From IMG/VR virus record IMGVR_UViG_3300045015_000053: 64,000 nt of DNA. The stretch is one strand, 5' to 3'. Both the position numbers and the translations under genes were made by a program. The notes under the pieces are model-generated. The model was not told the DNA's origin. It worked only from the letters and a program-made list of their open reading frames with translations, and searched no databases. Below, in pieces: positions 1,809 to 53,099 of the stretch; the stretch's first letter is position 1; each line of letters starts with the position of its first letter. The DNA comes from a virus (lineage: Duplodnaviria; Caudoviricetes).

Positions 1809-2484
1809 TTTGCCCCTTATGAATTGCTGAGGTGAAGCCGACGACGCTCATCCGCAGGTGGTCCCCGGCGGCTTGGTCGATGCGGTTCACCATGTGACAG
1901 ATACCGGATTTCATCAGCACCAGTCTGTTGGGTTTCGGGACGATCATGTGTCCCACACCGAACGCGCTGATGAATGCGTCCAGTTGGCTGTGGTCGATTG
2001 ACGGGTTCACCTCATAATCGACCTTCGGCATCATGTCTGTTGGCGGGGTATTCGCGACCAAAAGCTCACCGCCCCAATGCGGACTCCAACGCGGGTGGCA
2101 GTAGAAGGTCATTGCGGCGGTGTAGTCGCCGCCGTCGCCGTGCCAACTGAGCCTGGACCCGGCCGGGTAGATGTACATCGTCAGTATCAACGAGTGCCAG
2201 TCCACGCCGCGAACCCCGCAGATCTCCGGGTGTTGTTCGCACTCGTGCAACATCACGTCGTGGAGTTCGCTGAGGGCCGTGTCGTTCGGGAAATTGACGG
2301 TGTACATCGAGCTACTCTCGCGCAAGATCTCCCCGTCGCCCGGCCTCCAAACTTTTTCCCAGTTGGTGTTGTGCTGACGCTTGAAGCTCTTGTTCGAGAA
2401 CTCGACCATCAGCCGGCCGAACTGATCGCTTTCGAGGACGTTGTCCCAGACGACCATGCTCTTGTTGGAGATGACTTCCCTCAT
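1768..2484 (-). CDS. 2OG-Fe(II) oxygenase (prolyl-4-hydroxylase-like)
   Basis: HxD (SWHGD), WGGEL, PNRLVL, distal His (CHMV) and RMS; ATG overlaps the upstream stop (ATGA). Confidence 0.85.
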   Translation of the reverse strand: MREVISNKSMVVWDNVLESDQFGRLMVEFSNKSFKRQHNTNWEKVWRPGDGEILRESSSMYTVNFPNDTALSELHDVMLHECEQHPEICGVRGVDWHSLILTMYIYPAGSRLSWHGDGGDYTAAMTFYCHPRWSPHWGGELLVANTPPTDMMPKVDYEVNPSIDHSQLDAFISAFGVGHMIVPKPNRLVLMKSGICHMVNRIDQAAGDHLRMSVVGFTSAIHKGQNVSVANDLVRLAA

Positions 2485-2957
2485 CTTGGTCTGCACTGAT
2501 AGATTCCGTGTCCGACCCGACGAATCCGGTTCCCCGCCGCCGTCAGTTCCCGGCGGATAGATGCGTAGTGGTTGCTGATCGTGCATGTTTTGAGTCCGTA
2601 TTTGTTGAAGTGCCGTCTGATCATCATCAGAGAAAGCGGCTTGCCTTTTAGGAGTTGGTCCTTGATGAACCGGCGGATCAACGCCGCCAACCTCTGTTCA
2701 TCTTTCCTCTTGCTCGCCTTCTCGACGGCCGGGATGTGTTGTTTGACTATCTCGTACTCGACGGAACTGTCGATTCCGTCCCCTTCACAAAGCTCACCGG
2801 CGAGTTCGGGTAGCTCACAGAGTTGCATCGGCTTCGGCATTTCGATTGTGAAAAGCTTGCCGCCGAAGGTGTTCGCGTACTCGATTAGAAGGGGATAATT
2901 CTTCAGATCTGTCAGGAACTCACGTTTCTCTGGTGTGCGGATCAAAAGACATTTCAT
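2481..2957 (-). CDS. hypothetical protein, possible C-terminal winged-helix
   Basis: 158-aa ORF with GGAGG RBS, coupled to the 2OG oxygenase gene. Confidence 0.65.
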   Translation of the reverse strand: MKCLLIRTPEKREFLTDLKNYPLLIEYANTFGGKLFTIEMPKPMQLCELPELAGELCEGDGIDSSVEYEIVKQHIPAVEKASKRKDEQRLAALIRRFIKDQLLKGKPLSLMMIRRHFNKYGLKTCTISNHYASIRRELTAAGNRIRRVGHGIYQCRPR

Positions 2958-2995
2958 GTGGCCTCCAATTTGTTCATTTGATTCTAGTCGTTAGA

Positions 2996-3982
2996 ATGAC
3001 GGGAGATGCCAAAACGGAGGAAGTCGTGAGATTTGACTATTGCCGAAGGTTCGGTTCGGAAATCGAGGTAAACGCATTCGACGGCCAAAGTTCGCCGGCC
3101 CAAGAAGGTGTGCAACCCGATGGCATCCAGCACGTCGCACAGATCGTGGCGACGGCGACCCGTGGTCGGTGCGAAATATACACTTGGCTGGCCGGTCAAA
3201 AGGCGACCGACTTCAACACGATCTGGATGTTGAAGCCGGACGGCAGTTGCGGGATGGAGATTTGCAGCCCGGTCAGCAAAGGGCTGTACGGCATCAATCA
3301 AGGGGCCAGGGTCATAACGGCGCTTAGGGACTCACGGATCGTTCAGGCCGACTCGCGGTGTTCCTTGCACATTCACGTCGATGTTTCGGACCTGACGACG
3401 GAGCAAGTTGCTGCGGTTTTGGCGCATTGGGTCAAGTGCGAGTACACGATGCTTCTCGCCATGCCCGACCACCGCAAGAAGAACCGATACTGCCAGCCCA
3501 TTGGCATGTCTGATCTTTTGCGGGCGGATTCGATCATGTCGCCGGATTCGATCATTACTTGGCTCGGAATGTACAAATACTACACGGCCAACGCTTTCCA
3601 CTACAAGAACGGCAAACGCCCGACACTCGAATTCAGGATCGCCGACGAGGAAGCGTGTAAGAACCCCGAATACTACCGCAACTGGCACAAGCTCGTCCTT
3701 CACCTCGTTGAGACGGCTGTGGCGAGCGGGATGCCAAAAACGTACAACAAAGACGACCCGACCAGCGGGTATTCGTGGTTGACGCCGTCCGAAGTGATGC
3801 GGTTCTTGAATTTTGAAGGGGCGGTTGACTTGTGTGACGAGTTGAAGGAAACTTGTACTTGGTTCAAATCCCGTGTTTTGAAGTACGCCCAGAGCAGTCT
3901 CGGCGGGATTTGGGACGCGAAGGTGTACCAGAGTGCCAGCAAGGGGTGCCAAGATGCTTTTGTACAAAAGTCAGCCGCTTGA
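2996..3982 (+). CDS. putative amidoligase (Amidoligase_2 / COOH-NH2 ligase family)
   Basis: FGSEIEV, LKPDGSCGMEICSP, SLHIHVD and TLEFR motifs. Confidence 0.8.
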   Translation: MTGDAKTEEVVRFDYCRRFGSEIEVNAFDGQSSPAQEGVQPDGIQHVAQIVATATRGRCEIYTWLAGQKATDFNTIWMLKPDGSCGMEICSPVSKGLYGINQGARVITALRDSRIVQADSRCSLHIHVDVSDLTTEQVAAVLAHWVKCEYTMLLAMPDHRKKNRYCQPIGMSDLLRADSIMSPDSIITWLGMYKYYTANAFHYKNGKRPTLEFRIADEEACKNPEYYRNWHKLVLHLVETAVASGMPKTYNKDDPTSGYSWLTPSEVMRFLNFEGAVDLCDELKETCTWFKSRVLKYAQSSLGGIWDAKVYQSASKGCQDAFVQKSAA

Positions 3983-10958: not shown

Positions 10959-11623
10959 TTCTTGCACCCGCACGGCTTACTCAGCCGACCGATCATCCTT
11001 TTCTTCGGAGTGATTTTGCTTTGAAAACCTTGCATAGCTATGGCTTCTACGACGACACACGGGTTACACGGGACAATTGCTGTTTGGTTTTCTTCCGTAC
11101 CGGAGAAGCCCGGTGGGTTGTTGCAGCAGCAACCTTCTGTACATGTGTTGTCGCGATTTTCCCAGAACCCTCCTAGCCATTCCCACACACACTCTCCAGT
11201 ACAAGTGACAACACCGCTACTGCTGGTGGAGCTTGGACTCACGCTCGAAGACGGGCTGCTGCTTGGGCTGCTCGACGGACTCGAACTCGGACTGGAACTC
11301 GGACTCGAAGACGGGCTGCTGCTTGGGCTACTCGACGGACTCGAAGACGAGCTTGGGCTTTTTGAGCTTGACGCACTTGAACTGCTCGACGGACTCGAAG
11401 ACGAGCTTGGGCTGCTTGAGCTTGACGCACTCGAACTGCTCGAAGGTGAAGAACTGCTCGAAGGTGAAGAACTGCTCGAACTCGAAGGTGAAGAGGACGA
11501 AGACGATGAAGAACTCGAACTCGAAGGTGAAGAGGACGAAGACGAGGACGAAGACGATGAAGACGACGATCCGCACGCCGCCAAAGCTTCTTCGTATGTT
11601 TTGTATGGACCAATGAGTGGCAT
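10955..11623 (-). CDS. poly-Ser/Pro linker protein with a Cys/Trp-rich C-terminal module
   Basis: AAGGA RBS plus ATG at 11623; about 120-residue S/P tract; CTGECVWEWLGGFW...CCC...PC module; the stop overlaps the GT-MTase ATG. Confidence 0.8.
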   Translation of the reverse strand: MPLIGPYKTYEEALAACGSSSSSSSSSSSSSSPSSSSSSSSSSSSPSSSSSSSPSSSSSPSSSSSASSSSSPSSSSSPSSSSSASSSKSPSSSSSPSSSPSSSPSSSPSSSPSSSPSSSPSSSPSSSVSPSSTSSSGVVTCTGECVWEWLGGFWENRDNTCTEGCCCNNPPGFSGTEENQTAIVPCNPCVVVEAIAMQGFQSKITPKKRMIGRLSKPCGCKK

Positions 11624-11631
11624 GTTTTCCT

Positions 11632-12129
11632 TTATGCGTTGTCTGTCTTGAAACACACGGTTGCGGCAACATCACCTTCAAACCGTCCCGGCGCGGGAGG
11701 GACCATACAGAAACATCCAACGGCCGGATTGAAACATGTGCTGCTGACATTTGACCAAGATCCGTCTCCCCAAACCCAGTTGCAAACGCCGGGGCATCCG
11801 CCACCACCACTACTCGAACTCGAAGAGGAAGAAGAACTGCTCGCACTTGAACTCGAAGAAGGACTACTCGAACTCGAAGGCGAACTACTCTAGCTACTTG
11901 ACGAACTCGATCCACAGACGTAGGCGTTCTTCTCTGCGCAACTGTTGAAGTACACGACTGTGTTCGTTTCTTGGCAACAGTACCAGCCGACGCAGCAACA
12001 GTTACAGCACCGCGCCCAACAGGAATCCGCACCGCTCATAGCCATAGTGCTGTTCATTGCAGCTTTGGCTCGTGCGGCGCGTTGTACCCTTTTGCGTAGG
12101 AACTCGGTGGCAATGATCGTCTGTCGCAT
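11632..12129 (-). pseudogene. second poly-Ser/Cys-rich protein, interrupted by a single in-frame TAG (codon 80, 11890-11892)
   Basis: The frame continues after the TAG with more Ser codons and a paralogous CPGVCNWVWGDGSW...CFC...P..C module, ending at TAA 11632-11634. Confidence 0.72.
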
Positions 12130-12407
12130 TATGCCTTTTCGCCGAAGAAATCTGCCGGGTACTCGATCCTGACGGTGCCGTTGCCCGAAGTCGGGTGGCC
12201 CTTGTCGTCTTCGACCCACCAGCGGACCTGTTTCACTTCGATTCCCAGTTGGTCCATGTGACACTTGTCGCCGGGGAACACCGGCATGTGGTACTCTTTG
12301 CCTTGAATCAGGCAGGCAACTTTGCACTGCCCCTTCTTCCGGTCGTAGAGCATGCAGTTGTTGCAGATCTTTTCGATCACCTTCAGTTCCTTCTTCTTGT
12401 CTTCCAT
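12129..12407 (-). CDS. hypothetical Cys-containing protein
   Basis: 92 aa with CNNC..C..C; the stop overlaps the next ATG (TAATG). Confidence 0.65.
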   Translation of the reverse strand: MEDKKKELKVIEKICNNCMLYDRKKGQCKVACLIQGKEYHMPVFPGDKCHMDQLGIEVKQVRWWVEDDKGHPTSGNGTVRIEYPADFFGEKA

Positions 12408-12464
12408 TGCTACCCTTTCTTTTTCTTGTATAATCTGGTCATCTCTTTCTTTCGGGAGGTCGTC

Positions 12465-13097
12465 ATGAACCACATCGTCTTCTCCGGTCAATTGGCTAAC
12501 GGCAAAGACCAGTGTGCCGACATCGTGCAGGGCATCCTGAATTCGACGGACGGACAACCCGCGTGGCGTCGTTCGGCGTTCGCGGGTGCCGTCAAGGATA
12601 TTTACGCTCACGCCTTCGGTGTTGACCGGGACTTCATCGAGAAACACAAGCGGTTGACGGACCCGCCGCCGGGCTACCTTCAAACCGTTCGGAAAGCCCT
12701 TCAGTTCATCGGCGATGGATTCCGCAACATCCGCGCCGACGTGTGGATCGAACTGGCCCTCCGCGACCCCTCACCCGTCATTATCAGCGACGGCCGCTAC
12801 ATCAATGAAGCGAGGGCGGCGAAAAAACGCGGCGGCGTCAACGTAGTCGTCTGGCGTCCGGGTTTCGAGAACGACGATCCGAACCGTTCCGAGTCGGAAA
12901 TCCTCGTCATCGTCAATTGGTGTCTGAAAACCAATCAGAACGGCCCGATCAGATACGTCGAGGACACGGACGCGCCAGAAGCCATCAAAGAGGGCGTTTA
13001 CGACTACTTCTTCCGCAACGACGTGTCGCTCGAAGAACTCCCCGACAAGGTAAACAACGAACTTATTCCGTATCTGGTGAATAGATACAGAGGGTAA
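12465..13097 (+). CDS. deoxynucleoside monophosphate kinase-like P-loop protein
   Basis: N-terminal SGQLANGKD, LQTV..., IISDGRYINE; GGAGGT RBS. Confidence 0.7.
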   Translation: MNHIVFSGQLANGKDQCADIVQGILNSTDGQPAWRRSAFAGAVKDIYAHAFGVDRDFIEKHKRLTDPPPGYLQTVRKALQFIGDGFRNIRADVWIELALRDPSPVIISDGRYINEARAAKKRGGVNVVVWRPGFENDDPNRSESEILVIVNWCLKTNQNGPIRYVEDTDAPEAIKEGVYDYFFRNDVSLEELPDKVNNELIPYLVNRYRG

Positions 13098-13119
13098 GAG
13101 TTACCCGCTAAGGGGGAGT

Positions 13120-13200
13120 GTGAGCGAACACGTTATTCGCAAGGGCGACCAACACTTTGTTGAGAAGGGTTGGGGGGAGGATGGGTATGCCAACTACTGA
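13120..13200 (+). pseudogene. 26-aa stub: displaced original 5' end of the cupin gene
   Basis: GGGGGAG RBS plus GTG; MSEHVIRKGDQHFVEKGWGEDGYANY*; FVEKGWG duplicates the cupin motif FVKKGWG at 13826-13846. Confidence 0.6.
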
Positions 13201-14161
13201 TCCTCAAAAACGCCGATCATACGAGAAAAAGTACGAACAGTCGCCCAAAGCCAAAGCGACTCGGAAAAAGTACAAAGCCACCGTCGAAGGAGTGGCGACA
13301 AGACGCAAAACGTATTTGAAGGCTTACCATAAGGCCAAGAAAGAAACAGACTATTACGTTTGCGGAGCCGGTCGCCTTAGTTCTCTGAGAACTTCTGCAA
13401 AAGAACGCGGCTTGGAATTCAGTCTTACGGTCGAGGAGCTTAGGAATTGGTGGCAGTCCTCGGAAGATGTCTGCGAATACTGTCGTATGACAGTAGATGA
13501 TTTTCGTAAGTTCAGAGATTACGTTCGGAGCTACGAAGGAAATGATTGGGATATTGTCTCCTTCAAAAGCTTGGTCGATAACAGAACTTGCGTTGATCAG
13601 TTGACTATCGACCGCATCGATAGTGGTTCTGGCTATTGTTTGGGGAATTTGGCAAAGTGCTGTTGGTTTTGCAACCTTGTGAAGCACCGTTTTTTGACGG
13701 CCAAGCACATGGCCCAAATCGCTCCTGACATTATTGCCAAACTCAAGTCGGCGATAGATAGGACTGAACAGAAAGTTACTTCTGATTCCGCTTGGAGTGG
13801 GCGACTGGGTTATTTCCAGCAGACTTTTGTCAAGAAAGGTTGGGGTTCGGAGCGATGGCTTTGGAACAACGATCTGTACTGCGGCAAGTACCTCTGGTTC
13901 GAGAAGGACAAGTGTTGCAGTTGGCACTACCACGCGATCAAAGACGAAGTCCTGCTTCTGGATTCGGGATCGATCAAGGTCACATATTCCGAGCAGGACG
14001 ACATCGGTTTGGCGAAGGAAGTCATTCTCAAGCCGGGCGATGCGTTTCACGTCCCGGTCGGCCTTAGACACAGGATGTTTGCCCTGGAAGACAGCGGCAT
14101 CTACGAGTTTTCGACGCACCACGAGGACTCAGATTCGATCCGCATCCAACGGGGAAATTGA
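13181..14161 (+). CDS. HNH/His-Me-type endonuclease fused in frame to a cupin (mannose-6-P isomerase-like) domain
   Basis: AT-richer N-terminal part with CEYC, TIDRIDSGSGY, NLAKCCWFCN. C-terminal KGWGSERW, CSWHYHAIKDE, PGDAFHVPVGLRHRM. Confidence 0.8.
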   Translation: MGMPTTDPQKRRSYEKKYEQSPKAKATRKKYKATVEGVATRRKTYLKAYHKAKKETDYYVCGAGRLSSLRTSAKERGLEFSLTVEELRNWWQSSEDVCEYCRMTVDDFRKFRDYVRSYEGNDWDIVSFKSLVDNRTCVDQLTIDRIDSGSGYCLGNLAKCCWFCNLVKHRFLTAKHMAQIAPDIIAKLKSAIDRTEQKVTSDSAWSGRLGYFQQTFVKKGWGSERWLWNNDLYCGKYLWFEKDKCCSWHYHAIKDEVLLLDSGSIKVTYSEQDDIGLAKEVILKPGDAFHVPVGLRHRMFALEDSGIYEFSTHHEDSDSIRIQRGN

Positions 14162-14170
14162 GGAGGCTTT

Positions 14171-14422
14171 ATGCTCGTCGGTCTGAACATGGCGGCTTCT
14201 TCCGTCCACTTTGCCACGAAGGGCAAACGGTTCATCGGAGACATCGAGGTCTTGGACGAACAAGTCCTCCACCAGCAAGGCTCGTTCAAAAGGGTCAAAA
14301 GGTGGCTGAGAGGGAAACACCCACAACTGGGCATACTCCACCTCGGCTACACCGGATGGGAAACCATACAGGAAGTTGACGTGATCTCGCCGATGGTTGT
14401 GTTTGAGGTCATCGACGCTTGA
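14171..14422 (+). CDS. hypothetical protein
   Basis: GGAGG RBS, 83 aa. Confidence 0.65.
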   Translation: MLVGLNMAASSVHFATKGKRFIGDIEVLDEQVLHQQGSFKRVKRWLRGKHPQLGILHLGYTGWETIQEVDVISPMVVFEVIDA

Positions 14423-14693
14423 AGTGACCCGCCTTCGGGTCGTAACTCCACAGATTGTTTTCTTCTTCTTTGATGCCGTTGGCTTTGGCGGTCTTCAGGA
14501 CCAGTTCCTGAAGTTCCTTTTCAGCCGCGATCACGTCGTGTGCCAGCATCATTTGCTTGGCCGTAATGTGACCCAGTCTCAACTTCAGGTCATTGGCCTT
14601 TTTCTCGGCCGCGTTGATCTCGTCAACTACTCGCGGGTGGATCTCCACTGGCAGGTGGATGACTTTCGGCGGGAGGGGTTTCTTTTTGCTCAT
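14409..14693 (-). CDS. hypothetical coiled-coil protein
   Basis: 94 aa with a heptad-like central region. Confidence 0.6.
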   Translation of the reverse strand: MSKKKPLPPKVIHLPVEIHPRVVDEINAAEKKANDLKLRLGHITAKQMMLAHDVIAAEKELQELVLKTAKANGIKEEENNLWSYDPKAGHFKRR

Positions 14694-15360
14694 TCAATAC
14701 ATGAGTCCGCTTCTCGCGTTCTTGTTTCCCGATTTTATCCCGCAACTTGTCCAGACCGCGTTCTGTCAGCACCATGAACTTCCACTGCCGCGCCAGACAG
14801 TATTCGTTACACGCCGCCCATTTCGCCTTGTTTCGGCCGATCTCGGTCTGACTAGAGGGTTTGACCTCCCAGATCTCGACCGTGCCGTCCGTGAACGTGA
14901 TACGGATGTCCGGGTAATAGTCGTGTTGCAGTCCGTGGAAGAAGTAGCGAACAGGGAACGGTTCCTCTTCGTATCTGTGGACGATGTCCCAGTGTTCGAG
15001 TAGTTCGTAGACTTCGCACTCCATGCCGGATCGGTAGTGCATGTCTTTGCCGTTCTTGTTGCTGCTCATGTAGCCGTCGCGGAAGTGCGGCTTCTTGGTG
15101 TTCATCTTGCCTTCTTTGGTGGAGATGTCTTTCCACACCAAAGCGCGACTCATGCCCTTCTTCGGCATCTTGTCGTAGGGGTGTTTGGCCTTGAAGTGGG
15201 CCTTCAGGTCGCGCACCGGGGCTTTGCACCGCTCCAGCGGACACAAGACGTACTCGCGGCCCTCTTCGTGGTTCTGGACGATGTGTTCTTTGAACGCCTC
15301 GAACGTGTCGAGCCGCTCGCCGCAGACGTAGCACTGGTAGACTCGTTTGTCGTTGCTCAT
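14623..15360 (-). CDS. C2H2 zinc fingers fused to a TnsA-N / T4 gp4 head-completion-like nuclease
   Basis: CYVC..F..H..H and CP..C..H..H fingers, then YRSGMECEVY, YYPDI, IWEVKP, NKAKWAA, FMVLTE. Confidence 0.78.
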   Translation of the reverse strand: MSNDKRVYQCYVCGERLDTFEAFKEHIVQNHEEGREYVLCPLERCKAPVRDLKAHFKAKHPYDKMPKKGMSRALVWKDISTKEGKMNTKKPHFRDGYMSSNKNGKDMHYRSGMECEVYELLEHWDIVHRYEEEPFPVRYFFHGLQHDYYPDIRITFTDGTVEIWEVKPSSQTEIGRNKAKWAACNEYCLARQWKFMVLTERGLDKLRDKIGKQEREKRTHVLNEQKETPPAESHPPASGDPPASS

Positions 15361-15824
15361 TTGCCTCTTTGCTTTTCGGATCGCAGCGGGCGGCGGTCGT
15401 CCTCTTGATCCGCATCGGACGAAACGATCATCACCGGCTTGGGCTTGGTTTTCTTGCCGTTCATCTTCTTGATCAACAGGGACTCGCACTTATCTTTGCT
15501 CACGATCTTCAGCCCCTTCAGGTCTTTCTTGGAGAAGAGGTTTTCGGTGATCTTGCCGGTGAGTGCGTCGTACAGGTTAATCGCGCCGAACCGGGCCTCT
15601 TTGAGATTCGCATCGTCCTTGTTCGGGTGTTTCATTCTCGCGAACGTGAGGCGACTCTCTTCCGAGCAGCCGTAGAGTTGATTGTCTTTGGTGAAGTACA
15701 TGATGAGGTTCTGACCGTCCAGCATCATGTTGATCTTCGCGGATGAGTCCTCTTCGCGCATGCAGCAGTTGTCCCAGATGTCCATCAGGTGACGAAAGTC
15801 GGAAAAAGCGGGTGACTGTCTCAA
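15357..15824 (-). CDS. hypothetical protein
   Basis: GAGGG RBS plus TTG; coupled to the nuclease gene. Confidence 0.6.
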   Translation of the reverse strand: MRQSPAFSDFRHLMDIWDNCCMREEDSSAKINMMLDGQNLIMYFTKDNQLYGCSEESRLTFARMKHPNKDDANLKEARFGAINLYDALTGKITENLFSKKDLKGLKIVSKDKCESLLIKKMNGKKTKPKPVMIVSSDADQEDDRRPLRSEKQRGK

Positions 15825-15870
15825 AATTCCCTCGCGTTTATTGTTGCTTGCGACGTGTATAGATAGAGGT

Positions 15871-16350
15871 ATGACGAACAGTTTCGCGGGCTTCAGAGCC
15901 TTCCTTGAGAAGTTCGAGCCGCAGTCCGATAAGGACAAGGACGCTGCGAAGGACCGAATCAACGGAAAAGACAAGTCGATGGACTACCTCGGTGGACTCC
16001 AACGCGAGTTGGGCATCAGGAAGGCCAGCACCCTTGCCAAGATCATTCGCACCACGCCGGAAGTTCCGGCGGGGATGCAGATAGACGGTCTTGATGCGAA
16101 ATACGTTCCTGTCAAGTTCGACCCGAACCTGCGTGGCGGCTCCATGCAGGTTCTCCCAGTGGGCAACGTGATGGTCGCTTCTAAGGACGGACGCGACGTA
16201 CCTCCCGACAAGATCGACCGCAGCAGAAAGCGTGTGAAGAGATCGGGTATTGTGAAAACCCTTGAACGTGGTTGGGGTCCGGCTGTCGCGGCAGCAGCCG
16301 CACGGGATGCCGCCGGTGGCGGTGGCGCTCCTCCGATGCCGGGCATGTAA
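15871..16350 (+). CDS. putative internal head protein (capsid-targeting-like N-terminus)
   Basis: MTNSFAGFRAFLEKFE; TAGATA 5 nt upstream. Confidence 0.6.
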   Translation: MTNSFAGFRAFLEKFEPQSDKDKDAAKDRINGKDKSMDYLGGLQRELGIRKASTLAKIIRTTPEVPAGMQIDGLDAKYVPVKFDPNLRGGSMQVLPVGNVMVASKDGRDVPPDKIDRSRKRVKRSGIVKTLERGWGPAVAAAAARDAAGGGGAPPMPGM

Positions 16351-16360
16351 AAAGGAACTA

Positions 16361-16600
16361 ATGAGAACATTCAAAGACTGGCTCGCAAATGTCGAGAGCA
16401 ACGTTTCCGCTGAAACATCCACAAGCACGGGCGACGTTGCGGGCAACCCCTTCGGTGCGGGCATCCAGCATTACAACCCTAGCCGGGACCAGTACGGCCT
16501 CCTCAAGAAGAAAAAAAAAGACGGAAGCGAAGAGGGGCTAGGCGGTCAGGTGATTCCGATGCGATTCACCGGCGGTAAACCGGCCGGCAGCCGCGAGTGA
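16361..16600 (+). CDS. putative internal head protein (capsid-targeting-like N-terminus)
   Basis: AAGGA RBS; MRTFKDWLANVE; in-frame A9 run at 16511-16519. Confidence 0.65.
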   Translation: MRTFKDWLANVESNVSAETSTSTGDVAGNPFGAGIQHYNPSRDQYGLLKKKKKDGSEEGLGGQVIPMRFTGGKPAGSRE

Positions 16601-16605
16601 CTATA

Positions 16606-16977
16606 ATGCCTCCGTCAAAAACGGAGGCATTAGTTATTGGCATGAACGAACAGAACGACGAAAAGCTCGCCGAACAGGTCGTCTGGGGGCAGAAGAACCT
16701 CGACCGCGTCAACTGGATCTGGGAACACATCGAAAAAATCTGGGACGGCTACCGGGAAGCTCGGACCAACCAGTCGCTCGAAGCCGCTCAGAATTTTGCG
16801 GCTTGTCAAAACAAAGAAATTGCTTTACGCTATCCCGAATACCGAATCGGCGTGAGAAGGCTTCTCATGCTGCTAGAAAAGCGTTTCCAACAAGGAGCCG
16901 AGCATGTCCGAGAACACCACTGCGGAACAGTACGATGTGATGACTCTCCTGCCCAACAAAACGATCAAACTGCTTGA
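16606..16977 (+). CDS. hypothetical protein
   Basis: About 123-aa ORF overlapping the thyX start. Confidence 0.55.
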   Translation: MPPSKTEALVIGMNEQNDEKLAEQVVWGQKNLDRVNWIWEHIEKIWDGYREARTNQSLEAAQNFAACQNKEIALRYPEYRIGVRRLLMLLEKRFQQGAEHVREHHCGTVRCDDSPAQQNDQTA

Positions 16978-17812
16978 CTACGGTCACGCAACGCTGGTTG
17001 ACTGCATGCCCCGTTTCGCGCCGGTCGGGTACACCGCCGACGCCGCCATCGTTCAGGCCGCTCGCGTTTCCTACGGCGACGGCACCAAGAAACTCTCCGA
17101 GGATCGCGGGCTGATCCGCTACCTGATGCGGCACAGTCACACTACGCCGTTCGAGATGGTCGAGTTCAAGTTCCACTGCAAGATGCCGATTTTCGTGGCG
17201 AGACAATGGATCAGGCACCGTACCGCGAACGTGAACGAGATCAGTGGTCGGTACTCGGTCATGAAGGACGAGTTCTACAAGCCGGACGCGGCCGGCATCC
17301 GCCGACAGTCCAAGACGAACAAACAGGGCGGCGACACGCCTATCGACTTCGATACCGCCGCCGACTACCTCGCGTATCTGGATGAGGTCTGCATCAAGGC
17401 GTACCAGACCTACGAGAAGTACATCGGCGAAGGTGTCAGCCGTGAGCAGGCGCGTATGATCCTGCCGCTCAACCTGTACACCGAGTGGTACTGGAAGATT
17501 GACCTCCACAACCTGTTCCACTTCCTGAGCCTCCGGTGTGACGCTCACGCACAGGAAGAAATCCGCGTCTTCGCCAACGCGATGCTAGAATTGATCAGCC
17601 CGCTCGTTCCGTACTCCGTCGAGGCGTGGAACGACTACCACTTCCGTCGTCAGGGACTGATCCTGACGCGGCTCGAAGTAGAAGCTCTCAGGAAGATGCT
17701 CGGTGATTCTACGCCGCTGCAAATCGAGAGCGACAACAGCCGCGAGAAGGAAGAGTGGAAAGGCAAACTGGCCCGTCTGGGGATACAAAAACCGTTCGAG
17801 GAGAAATCATGA
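16904..17812 (+). CDS. thyX: FAD-dependent thymidylate synthase
   Basis: AARVSY, RHSHTTPFE, ThyX motif RHRTANVNEISGRY, ARMILP, AQEEIR. Confidence 0.95.
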   Translation: MSENTTAEQYDVMTLLPNKTIKLLDYGHATLVDCMPRFAPVGYTADAAIVQAARVSYGDGTKKLSEDRGLIRYLMRHSHTTPFEMVEFKFHCKMPIFVARQWIRHRTANVNEISGRYSVMKDEFYKPDAAGIRRQSKTNKQGGDTPIDFDTAADYLAYLDEVCIKAYQTYEKYIGEGVSREQARMILPLNLYTEWYWKIDLHNLFHFLSLRCDAHAQEEIRVFANAMLELISPLVPYSVEAWNDYHFRRQGLILTRLEVEALRKMLGDSTPLQIESDNSREKEEWKGKLARLGIQKPFEEKS

Positions 17813-34979: not shown

Positions 34980-35102
34980 ATGCTTGGTTTTGAACACCTT
35001 CACAGCGGTTTCGATTTTTCGATTCTGGATCAGTTCGTCACATGGGAACCCGACCATGAACCAATGGTTGAAGGCGATTTGGATGCGGAGTGCGTTTCCT
35101 AG
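34980..35102 (+). pseudogene. 40-aa stub duplicating the DnaE PHP N-terminus (not in the ORF track)
   Basis: MLGFEHLHSGFDFSILD versus DnaE-N TGLEHLHLHTDFSLLD; shared DNA 12-mer GAACACCTTCAC. Confidence 0.6.
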
Positions 35103-52257: not shown

Positions 52258-52533
52258 ATGCTCAGTCGTAAGCACTTGAACGACGTGTGTCTTCTGTATT
52301 CTGGAGACTCACGTCGTTGCCGTTTTCTCACGCAAGACGATTCCGACCCCTCGAAGTGGCACTGTTTGAAGCTTACCTCGCGCCGTCAGGACATAGACGT
52401 TGAAGTGGCCGATTTCATCAAAGACTGTCGGCGGAAGGGTCAAGACCCTGCGAAATCTGGGATGCCGCTCGGTGACAACTGCGGCGGCTACCCTGTATTG
52501 AAGAACATCAATCAGGGCTATGATTGCCCATAG
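52258..52533 (+). CDS. hypothetical Cys-rich protein
   Basis: GGAG RBS; C..CRFL..C..NC.GY; ends QGYDCP. Confidence 0.7.
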   Translation: MLSRKHLNDVCLLYSGDSRRCRFLTQDDSDPSKWHCLKLTSRRQDIDVEVADFIKDCRRKGQDPAKSGMPLGDNCGGYPVLKNINQGYDCP

Positions 52534-52568
52534 GTGAAAAAACCGCAAACCATGATCTATATACGATC

Positions 52569-53099
52569 ATGGAAGACATGACAGGAAAGGTTCTCAACCG
52601 CCAGAAGGTCATCGAGATCGTAGAGGGGACAAAAAGACCTATCCTCTGGAACGTAAGATGTCTAAACTGCGGTGCCGAGAGAACTAACAATCGCGCCAAC
52701 TTCTTAAAGGGGTACGGTTGTAAAACGTGTAGTATGCTCGCAAAGGGCCAAGCTGGTCTGAACAGGTTGTTTAGACAGTACAAGCGACAAGCGAAGAATC
52801 GTGGATTCCAACTTACGCTTGAAGACTTGAAGTTTTTGAGTGGTTCCAATTGTCACTATTGCGGTGTGGTTCCTCAATCCGTGATATACGGCAACTCTCC
52901 AGGGACTTGGAGTGAGTATATGTACAATGGAATCGACCGCAAAGATAACACCCAGGACTACGTTCTGACAAACTGCGTCTCCTGTTGTTGGCGTTGCAAT
53001 AGAACATTTGGTCCTTTGTTTGATTACGAAGAAAAACTGATACTCGCCGAGGCGTTGCGAAAAATCGACCGGCGGCGACAAAGTCAAGACTGTCCCTAA
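52569..53099 (+). mobile_element. free-standing HNH-type endonuclease (same family as the 13181 N-terminal domain)
   Basis: AT-richer; CLNCG, CKTC, FQLTLE, CHYCG, GIDRKDNTQDY, NCVSCCWRCN; ends QSQDCP. Confidence 0.8.

Follow-up and report, generated by a model that had tools for sequence, protein, structure and literature searches.

In the usual view, a homing endonuclease can spare the gene of its host only if it resides in an intron, an intein or an intergenic site. The locus described here raises the question of how a nuclease gene can be kept inside a coding sequence when neither intron nor intein is present and the interrupted gene nevertheless appears whole. It lies in a 64,000-nucleotide stretch of DNA of a tailed phage (IMG/VR record IMGVR_UViG_3300045015_000053), which we call the window. 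In this uncultured giant phage from lake water a selfish endonuclease gene is embedded 19 codons into a small cupin gene of a sugar pathway.

Layout of the interrupted cupin gene

All of the features given below are on the plus strand. A promoter-like site, TTGCTA-16-TATAAT (12407-12434), is situated upstream of a dNMP-kinase-like gene (12465-13097; phrog_139, E 7e-24), which is the upstream neighbour of the cupin gene and is conserved in this group of phages. The site was recognised by its match to the consensus alone, in a count not above that of shuffled sequences, and it likely marks the start of the transcript with the stub, the HNH-cupin gene and the next gene. No other promoter-like site was found, and the HNH ORF is itself promoter-less and lies inside the host operon.

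Downstream of the kinase-like gene, AAGGGGGAG at 13110-13118 precedes an ORF of 26 amino acids with a GTG start (13120-13200). Codons 1-19 of this ORF (13120-13176) are the displaced 5' end of the cupin gene, called the stub in what follows, and its last seven codons are element sequence read out of frame. The stub contains the first copy of a repeat, QHFVEKGWG (13150-13176), and the second copy, QTFVKKGWG (13820-13846), serves as the substitute gene start that the HNH brings along; the two stretches coding for Q.FV.KGWG lie at a distance of 670 nt (F13 at 13156, F214 at 13826). The preliminary description of this DNA had noticed both the ribosome-binding site with the 26-aa ORF containing FVEKGWG upstream of the HNH and the recurrence of the motif as FVKKGWG about 670 nt later in the HNH frame, followed by a complete cupin, and they are indeed there. 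It had also called the second copy recoded. Four of the seven shared codons do differ synonymously, and because such a difference is ordinary for a nucleotide identity of about 70-75%, the word need mean only that the copy was taken from a diverged allele. The nine-codon repeat alone is barely above noise, with an ungapped score of 44 against a shuffle maximum of 40, and we count it as real not because of this score but because the stub is homologous to the N-terminus of a nuclease-free cupin in a related phage, L002, which is described below.

The native GWG codons end in a run of six Gs (13172-13177), and this G6 run together with the following AGG (13172-13180) doubles as a Shine-Dalgarno sequence for the HNH ORF. 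On its left side the insertion joins the cupin gene between 13177 and 13186. By homology with the full-length relatives P0010 and P0011, which also begin with MP, the HNH starts at the ATG at 13187, with GGAGG at 13176-13180 six nt upstream; this start is 10 nt past the last native codon, and the first 14 nt of the ORF are shared with the end of the stub ORF. The fusion ORF (13187-14161) encodes a protein of 324 amino acids, P0001, composed of a complete HNH module (aa 1-198; 13187-13780), a linker which ends in SAWSGRLGYFQQT (aa 199-213; 13781-13825) and a cupin domain (aa 214-324; 13826-14161). The linker is conserved in the fused family and replaces the variable first residues of the cupin. 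In it, MAFFT pairs GTG GGC GA...GTTATT (13797-13817) with the start of the stub, possibly by chance. A conserved gene for 83 amino acids (14171-14422), which has no PHROG match, follows the cupin and provides the syntenic anchor on the right-hand side.

Both junctions and the G6 run recur, free of indels, in the contigs of four further lake-water runs, and the stub-bearing form persists across runs from 2018 to 2025. Among the contigs of those runs, which drop rare variants, none carries a nuclease-free allele or joins across the HNH. In run X9 the unitigs internal to the HNH have a 4-fold higher depth. Positions 11000-17000 of the window, searched as DNA, matched none of 50,697 phage records. 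In the same genome a stub of the 5' end of dnaE was observed at 34980-35102, which may be another footprint of a stub-leaving invasion; the ORFs between this stub and dnaE had no match among the PHROGs.

The nuclease family and the cupin domain

The nuclease part of P0001 is not recognised by Pfam or NCBIfam and was matched only by PHROG families of HNH and EndoVII nucleases (E 1e-10 to 1e-12) and by the PacI profile. Profile A3 matched PDB 3ldy (3ldy_A) with E 1.5e-18 over profile positions 68-195, the single sequence reaching E 0.04. The module consists of a basic helical N-terminus, a CxxC (C96/C99), a DRID..GY..N core and a CxxCN (C159/C162/N163). C96, C99, R143, Y150, N154, C159, C162 and N163 are invariant across 26 family members, which covers both CxxC zinc sites together with N154 and N163, and the Asn of the beta-beta-alpha-metal motif is present. 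R143 occupies the position of the catalytic histidine in DRID...GY, the invariant Y150 is encoded at 13634-13636, and no histidine is invariant among the HNH parts of the four fused members. It is known that in PacI-type enzymes a tyrosine takes the place of the catalytic histidine (PMC5714182). Judged from these matches, the nuclease is evidently a homologue of the PacI-like HNH enzymes (His-Me finger group 20). It has in common with PacI (PDB 3ldy/3m7k; group 20, PMC5714182) a homologous catalytic module, two CxxC zinc sites, the core DR.D...GY...N...C..CN..K and a tyrosine for the general-base histidine. PacI, however, is a bacterial restriction enzyme of 142 amino acids, whereas P0001 adds a basic helical N-terminal extension of 60 residues and a C-terminal cupin, and the genomic behaviour of P0001 is that of a homing endonuclease.

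Free-standing relatives of this nuclease stop at a position which corresponds to about aa 195. One of them, a paralogue of 191 amino acids from the same HNH family, is intergenic in the window itself (52524-53099) and is missing from the L002 contig, in which its two flanking genes are neighbours (L045 1429-1522). An HNH copy of L002 (5614-6060) is in turn missing from the window, where the flanking genes are about 35 nt apart (15836-15874). Together with the cupin this makes three sites, two of them free-standing, at which presence or absence of the family differs between the window and the L002 contig, and 25 further free-standing copies were found in metagenome contigs. From this pattern the PacI-like HNH family evidently behaves as mobile. 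A screen of the 25 free-standing relatives for duplications of their flanks gave nothing above shuffles, this being a weak test in which the window's own repeat stands out by the small margin given above.

The cupin domain matches phrog_7851 with E 7e-48 over profile positions 6-116 of 117, and its metal motif H.H...E / H, second His motif included, is intact in P0001 and conserved. An AlphaFold2 model of the whole protein (pLDDT 92.5) has two well-formed domains. A Foldseek search with this model retrieved cupins and D-lyxose isomerase, and the top 50 matches are all cupins; PacI is missing from them because the cupin domain dominates a search with the whole model. In RefSeq cyanophages phrog_7851 is annotated as 'cysteine dioxygenase', a name which we regard as unsupported because the neighbours and fusion partners of the cupin are sugar-nucleotide enzymes. 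Natural N-terminal fusions at the same point of the cupin involve nucleotidyltransferase, HAD, PfkB and kinase-like domains, the kinase-like gene itself being fused to the cupin in P0018 and P0084. These natural fusions and the AlphaFold2 model indicate that the cupin tolerates N-terminal fusion at this point. An internal start of the cupin was considered and rejected: the sole in-frame ATG (M175) encodes a conserved residue of the HNH fold, which is present in the free-standing relatives as well.

A nuclease-free allele and the ancestry of the fusion

L002, a phage contig of 261 kb, is a syntenic relative of the window in which the kinase-like gene, an intact GTG-started cupin gene and the 83-aa gene follow each other with no HNH. 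The N-terminus of its cupin, M..H.I..G.QHFV.KGWG.ERW, is uninterrupted and stands at the same position as the stub; such an element-free allele in a related phage had been predicted by the preliminary description. All 19 codons of the stub can be aligned with this N-terminus, 12 of the 19 residues are identical, the GTG and the spacing after the kinase-like gene are the same, and the two part ways directly after GGTTGGGG. The kinase-like gene is 69% identical to that of L002 (2323-2952), the cupin body 80% and the 83-aa gene 73% (3355-3606); the body thus resembles L002 no less than its two flanks do. Sliding identity between the window and L002 is flat at 70-80% and includes no sharp co-conversion tract. 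The kinase-like gene adjoins the cupin not only in L002 but also in L006-L011 and L016/17. No relative has a stub and a cupin without the HNH, an arrangement which had been named as one that would speak against the proposed element. L002 could instead have lost the element through recombination between the two repeats.

Three more proteins (P0010, P0011 and P0003/L012) have the same HNH-cupin fusion, with identities of 48-59%, and the junction LGYF.Q.F[VI]KK.WG is common to all four. Evidently the HNH-cupin fusion is not a one-off repair but a long-established, conserved family of at least four genes. The only IMG/VR contig with this fusion is that of L016. The stub is missing in three of the four fusion genes, therefore the fusion can also spread, or be maintained, as an entire gene; in L016/17 it is found directly 3' of the kinase gene.

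The two parts of the fusion have different histories in the trees. The four fused HNH parts form a clade (SH-aLRT 89), but this is not so for the four fused cupin bodies (single origin: AU p 0.0025, in a test which was chosen only after the first tree had been viewed). The cupin body of P0001 is sister to the stand-alone cupin of L002 (98-100/92-96) and, on this placement, evidently belongs to the resident, L002-like lineage. Across the linker and the substitute start, 19 of 21 residues match L012, and over the next 40 residues identity is about 82% to L002 and about 55% to L012, so that the apparent switch of ancestry at the junction is carried by some 20 residues of a motif-rich segment, the replaced end being too short for a tree.

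From these results we consider that the locus is probably a homing-endonuclease cassette, free of intron and intein, which exchanges the 5' end of the gene it targets for a copy of its own. The preliminary description had likewise proposed an element that supplies a substitute N-terminus fused to itself, and the L002 allele as well as negative Rfam and Pfam searches (given below) support that proposal. In a mixed infection the nuclease would cut cupin alleles that lack it, within or close to the conserved AARGGNTGGGG, which is the putative cut site. The break would be repaired from the nuclease-carrying genome, with the kinase gene and the stub as left arm and the cupin body as right arm, and repair would copy in the HNH plus the attached substitute gene start. 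The carrier allele would be immune, the old site being split and the new copy standing in a different sequence context. The cupin would form the C-terminal domain of the fusion protein and is predicted to remain active. The fusion would lend the nuclease the expression signals of the host gene, and the nuclease could be removed without loss of the cupin by precise deletion only.

At the N-terminus of this cupin further endonucleases are found fused as well, namely HNH-B in P0006, HNH-C in L011 and two enzymes of LAGLIDADG or related type in P0005 and P0097. In L011 an HNH-cupin cassette of 1.3 kb is found in place of the middle of the resident cupin, of which 5' and 3' remnants are left. A decayed HNH with its catalytic core deleted is still joined to an intact cupin in P0013. 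The N-terminus of P0014 was considered as a further decayed copy and rejected (HNH profile, E 0.086). Counting the PacI-like HNH, two classical HNH families and the LAGLIDADG type, we tentatively suggest that the cupin 5' end might be a hot spot where an in-frame fusion to a substitute start evolved separately in no fewer than four unrelated endonuclease lineages, and that this might be a recurrent homing strategy in giant phages. If so, loss of the nuclease would need a precise deletion, the nuclease would be made one-to-one with a needed enzyme, and stub-leaving invasions such as this locus and L011 would be footprints of the strategy.

The conservation of the fusion at 48-59% identity with both domains intact, its occurrence in different contexts with no stub in three cases of four and the missing co-conversion tract could also be attributed to a domesticated two-domain protein. 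This would be an ordinary gene, inherited vertically or swapped horizontally, whose nuclease is no longer homing, and the stub would be a scar of illegitimate recombination. We regard this explanation as unlikely: the cupin body of the window is resident-like and not donor-like, intact cupins still carry the remains of decayed nucleases, free-standing copies are polymorphic between the window phage and L002, and the presence of at least four unrelated endonuclease types fused at one spot argues for parasitism over shared function.

A homing cassette could have had a different beginning. The seg and mob genes of T4 land in intergenic spacers, and loss of the stop codon of an intergenic nuclease gene could have produced the fusion. 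It is rather improbable, though, that the locus as a whole is explained by a nuclease which first lay in the kinase-cupin spacer and was later fused in this way, with a duplication that was not designed and a stub left by secondary unequal or microhomology recombination, for which the GGGG of the GWG codons and the G-rich ribosome site of the nuclease are the proposed microhomology. Such a course leaves the persistence of the stub-bearing form over the runs from 2018 to 2025 unexplained, even if it is in accordance with a fused protein in which a complete HNH of the free-standing type is joined to a nearly complete cupin N-terminus, with the stub-less fusion right after the kinase gene in L016/17 and with a left junction within a G-run shared by both partners. 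It bears only on the origin of the locus and does not conflict with the cassette as the explanation of present-day behaviour.

Removal of one G from the G6 run does, as had been pointed out beforehand, leave a single open frame of stub, HNH and cupin, and a true run of five, or slippage of ribosome or polymerase, would give one protein with an in-frame intein-like insertion. This is very improbable in view of a G6 run without indels in runs X6, X7 and X9, which come from different studies, and of relatives which begin at the same MP and have no cupin codons upstream; read in the stub frame, the site also lacks the form of a canonical slippery heptamer. The frame coincidence is probably irrelevant because the relatives share the start and the run length was reproduced independently. 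The absence of an intein was likewise stated correctly in the preliminary description: Pfam detected no intein or Hint domain, Cys/Ser/Thr...HN splice junctions are lacking, and stub and HNH are in different frames, the HNH having its own start. HNH genes are often found in phage group I introns, but a group I or group II intron spliced out to leave stub plus cupin can practically be dismissed, as no Rfam family was found at E<=1 in 12000-15500 (the lack of room for a group I core had also been noted earlier), the HNH ORF fills the whole interval and continues into the cupin, and an insert removed by splicing would have no use for a substitute gene start.

Relation to known elements and significance

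In the WHO elements of Torulaspora and Lachancea yeasts the end of the target gene nearest to the nuclease is replaced at each integration (Coughlan et al., bioRxiv 10.1101/2020.01.20.913210). The likeness to the phage locus, as proposed here, consists of a nuclease gene beside a full-length target, a resistant copy which replaces the nearest end, an old end which serves as dead fragment and homology arm, and the lack of both intron and protein splicing. The displaced old gene end lies on the far side of the nuclease gene, as the stub at 13120-13176 and the 5' and 3' remnants in L011. The two ends of the WHO target gene have discordant phylogenies, and at the phage locus the trees of nuclease and cupin body are discordant. 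However, the replaced end is the 3' one of FBA1 in WHO and the 5' one of the cupin gene in the phage. The proteins differ as well, WHO encoding an intein-derived LAGLIDADG enzyme with a zinc finger and the phage element a PacI-like HNH, and the WHO gene is a separate ORF whereas the phage nuclease is fused in frame to the gene that it repairs. WHO cleavage has been shown by experiment, and the phage element is known here from sequence alone. By this comparison the phage element appears to be WHO-like in its working and outside the WHO protein family.

In-frame fusions of a LAGLIDADG enzyme with rps3 are reportedly found in Ophiostoma (as cited in PMC5626475). In fungal mitochondria, C-terminal duplications flanked by GIY-YIG or LAGLIDADG ORFs were observed in atp6 and cob (PMC6279837). 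These endonuclease genes are similar to the phage element in their intron-less insertion in a coding region, the duplication of the displaced end and a host ORF which is kept whole; they differ in being organellar, mostly at 3' ends, and of LAGLIDADG or GIY-YIG type. Among phages, parallels are MobA with the gene 60 cassette of T4 and mobE in nrdA of Aeromonas phage Aeh1 (PMC2988022; bioRxiv 10.1101/2022.08.31.505936), where a free-standing phage HNH likewise lies inside a conserved gene with no intron or intein, is promoter-less and has a start overlapping the upstream ORF. There, however, both pieces of the split host gene yield functional polypeptides, with ribosomal bypass in addition in gene 60, whereas the cupin locus discards one piece as a stub and supplies a substitute fused to the nuclease.

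The locus and its relatives would represent a fourth route in phages, in which the element brings a replacement gene end and becomes one protein with the enzyme that it rescues. They would also offer a testable system with a nuclease, a natural sensitive allele of the L002 type and a predicted natural immune allele, in which the choice of targets, the use of PacI-like tyrosine HNH nucleases as homing enzymes and the evolution of chimeric phage genes through repeated invasion can be studied. For annotation it means that short 'orphan' ORFs ahead of nuclease genes may be displaced gene starts and that odd fusions of nucleases with enzymes may be parasitic and not functional. Rare-cutting PacI-like enzymes with new specificities may furthermore serve as reagents.

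Anatomy of the HNH-cupin locus and the allele lacking the nuclease

A dNMP-kinase-like gene (12465-13097, plus strand, phrog_139) is followed in the window by a 26-codon stub ORF on the same strand (13120-13200), which starts with GTG, is preceded by AAGGGGGAG and reads QHFVEKGWG in codons 11-19. In the next frame relative to the stub lies a long ORF, P0001, of 324 aa (13187-14161, plus strand), whose start was set by homology to the ATG at 13187, because the homologues P0010 and P0011 begin with MP. This start overlaps the stub ORF, and GGAGG (13176-13180) stands six nt ahead of it. A second copy of the repeat, QTFVKKGWG, forms residues 212-220 of P0001, 670 nt past the first, as was stated in the preliminary description, which had noticed FVEKGWG in the stub and its recurrence as FVKKGWG. 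The same description excluded an intein and a group I core, and indeed Pfam detected no intein domain in the region and Rfam no RNA family in 12000-15500. It also holds true that deletion of one G from the G6 run (13172-13177), where the native GWG codons end and which also contributes to the ribosome-binding site of P0001, brings stub, HNH and cupin into a single frame. Just ahead of the substitute start, in another frame, GTG GGC GA....GTTATT (13797-13817) is similar to the way the stub opens, GTG AGC GA....GTTATT (13120-13140), with 15 of 21 nt matching in a MAFFT alignment (A1); the similarity may be fortuitous, or it may go back to a second start codon of a cupin.

The locus structure is not an assembly artefact: contigs from four other runs on lake water, dated 2018-2025 and carrying different study codes, span both junctions and the G6 run with at least 99% identity and zero indels, and none of them skips the HNH. 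In one of these runs (X9, 2018 lake sample) two HNH-internal unitigs (window 13223-13680) have a depth of 16 versus about 4 in the stub and cupin flanks, contig depths being crude, which hints weakly at additional genomes in that sample with the same HNH DNA.

The element-free allele predicted for related phages is present in L002, part of a 261,680-bp IMG/VR phage contig syntenic with the window locus. There the kinase-like gene is followed, after a gap of 21 nt, by an uninterrupted, GTG-started cupin of 123 aa and then by the same 83-aa gene as in the window. Its N-terminus reads M A N H F I P Q G E Q H F V P K G W G F E R W, and the stub is identical to its first 19 codons in 12 of 19 positions, diverging immediately past GGTTGGGG. 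Since the stub aligns with this start, and 10-13 residues precede V.KGWG in S-T4 and other stand-alone cupins too, we consider the stub to be the displaced original 5' end of the cupin gene; together with the L002 locus without HNH, this match makes the HNH an insertion relative to L002. The cupin body of the window is 80% identical to that of L002 (flanking genes 69% and 73%) and is its sister in trees (support 100/96 and 98/92), which indicates that it is resident and not imported.

The fusion protein and its mobile nuclease family

P0001 consists of two halves. Residues 214-324 match cupin family phrog_7851 (profile positions 6-116 of 117, E 7e-48). T4-like cyanophages have stand-alone homologues of about 120 aa, encoded next to genes for nucleotidyltransferase and heptose epimerase. 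The first half, up to about residue 198, matches HNH and endonuclease VII families of PHROG, and a profile of 26 HNH family members matched the restriction enzyme PacI (3ldy) at E 1.5e-18. Y150, N154, N163 and two CxxC pairs are invariant in the family, while R143 occupies the position of the catalytic histidine, which is absent, in accordance with the arrangement in PacI, where histidine is replaced by tyrosine (PMC5714182). Free-standing relatives (200-225 aa) terminate about 20 residues past the helix M..IAP.II..L, from which it follows that P0001 joins a complete nuclease of this kind, through a 15-residue linker, to a cupin missing no more than the few variable residues at its very start. 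The AlphaFold2 model (pLDDT 92.5) has a helical/HNH half and a complete beta-barrel from residue 213, and Foldseek returned cupins, e.g. D-lyxose isomerase, KdgF and CapF.

Comparison of insertion sites indicates that copies of this nuclease family move in these phages. A free-standing 191-aa HNH paralogue (window 52524-53099) lies between two conserved genes which in the L002 contig (L045 1429-1522) are only about 92 nt apart, without HNH; in the reverse case, a 148-aa paralogue (L002 5614-6060) separates a pair of divergently transcribed genes, and in the window (15836-15874) only about 35 nt lie between the starts of this pair. A metagenome scan added 25 further loci, all 25 copies being free-standing, with no cupin downstream of the HNH.

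The whole HNH-cupin architecture is shared with P0010 (326 aa), P0011 (331 aa, two contigs) and the end-truncated P0003 of L012, with the junction LGYF.Q.F[VI]KK.WG. No recognisable stub occurs at these three other fusion loci: in L015 a divergent gene lies 43 nt ahead of the fusion, the fusion of L016/17 begins inside the final codons of the kinase-like gene, and the contig end truncates the L012 locus. Within the family, the HNH parts of the four fusions group as a clade (SH-aLRT 89), whereas the four cupin bodies do not, their grouping (named after a first tree was seen) being rejected by the AU test (p 0.0025). As read from alignments, window and L012 match in 19 of 21 residues around the junction, while over the next 40 residues the window is about 82% identical to L002 and about 55% to L012. 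This pattern, no more than suggestive because the junction segment is short and motif-rich, would fit a transfer of the nuclease, together with a short substitute gene start, onto resident cupins. Further nuclease-type genes crowd these neighbourhoods (L016 2612-3364 and 6474-7187, L012 1163-1849): a LAGLIDADG_2 gene immediately precedes the kinase-like gene, and genes for Tn7 TnsA-like N-domain endonucleases follow the HNH-cupin fusion at a distance of a few genes.

Other partners at the same cupin N-terminus

Several endonuclease types are fused to the cupin 2-8 residues ahead of V.KGWG: a classical HNH (P0006; phrog_3106, 1e-19), a zinc-finger-rich HNH (L011; PF01844 above its cut-off), a LAGLIDADG-type enzyme with the motif LAGLIDGEG (P0005; phrog_5046, 9e-21) and another endonuclease (P0097; phrog_4645, 2e-25). 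Compared by blastn with its close relative L006, L011 carries a 1.3-kb HNH-cupin cassette (2039-3338) in place of resident cupin nt 2983-3221, and the cupin part of the cassette is very divergent (35% identity). A 5' remnant of the resident with about three of its codons (..VNRNL*) and about forty 3' codons (95% identical) remain, the remnant ORF on the 3' side having 28 codons (3373-3459). L011 also has a further insertion of about 0.9 kb relative to L006 (3460-4373), with a 292-aa gene on the minus strand. In P0013 an HNH of the window's type has lost its catalytic core and the cupin fused to it is intact (hhalign E 1.6e-5), and P0015 by eye resembles a P0006-type remnant. Such states are what selfish nuclease genes would be expected to leave as they invade and decay.

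The same cupin position is also occupied by a dNMP-kinase-like protein, as encoded by the neighbouring gene, a cytidylyltransferase (HldE domain II-like), a HAD phosphatase or a PfkB sugar kinase (P0018, P0084, P0012, P0028, P0038, P0044, P0046, P0141, P0007-P0009). These fusions look functional, and the cupin domain therefore tolerates N-terminal partners. Judged by its partners, the cupin points to a putative sugar-phosphate isomerase or epimerase role in a heptose pathway, which the name "cysteine dioxygenase" in RefSeq cyanophage records does not fit. One cupin sub-family (P0070, P0073, P0087, P0109, P0123, P0143) carries, ahead of M.FVSK.WGWE, a conserved N-terminal extension (MTFE..Y.....P..., 50-70 aa) to which no family was assigned.

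A probable gene-start-replacing cassette

We propose that the nuclease would cut nuclease-free cupin alleles in or near AARGGNTGGGG, a conserved stretch common to all stand-alone cupin genes. The break would be repaired from the carrier genome, with the kinase gene and stub on one side and the cupin body on the other as homology arms, and nuclease and substitute start would be copied in. The carrier allele would be immune because its own site is split, and the left junction may have arisen through a G-run that the nuclease's ribosome site has in common with the GWG codons. As in the T4 seg and mob genes, the ORF is promoter-less and its start overlaps an upstream ORF (PMC2988022).

That the HNH is inserted and the stub displaced is very probable. 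The reading as a whole, which joins the observed anatomy, the insertion relative to the syntenic allele, the polymorphic nuclease family, the conserved fusion and the discordant trees into a homing-endonuclease cassette that replaces a gene start, we regard as likely, while active homing with its target at the GWG codons is proposed tentatively, as a real possibility. The preliminary description had read the locus as an element without intron or intein that supplies a recoded gene start fused to itself; the observation is confirmed, and the interpretation is supported with refinements.

Upstream of the real dnaE-N start (35196), the window has a 40-aa ORF (34980-35102) resembling the dnaE N-terminus, which could be another displaced gene start; the ORFs between it and dnaE gave no PHROG match and no nuclease is recognisable there.

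Among described mechanisms, that of the WHO elements of yeasts comes closest: with every integration they exchange the 3' end of FBA1, and the old end persists as a fragment that also serves as homology arm (bioRxiv 10.1101/2020.01.20.913210). In fungal mitochondria, duplicated ends of atp6 and cob stand next to endonuclease ORFs (PMC6279837), and work cited in PMC5626475 describes LAGLIDADG-rps3 fusions. In phages, mobA splits the topoisomerase gene of T4 and mobE the nrdA of Aeh1, and neither supplies a substitute (PMC2988022). What sets the window locus apart is that a nuclease is fused in frame with the gene it rescues, that this enzyme is PacI-like, and that several endonuclease families converge on the N-terminus of one cupin.
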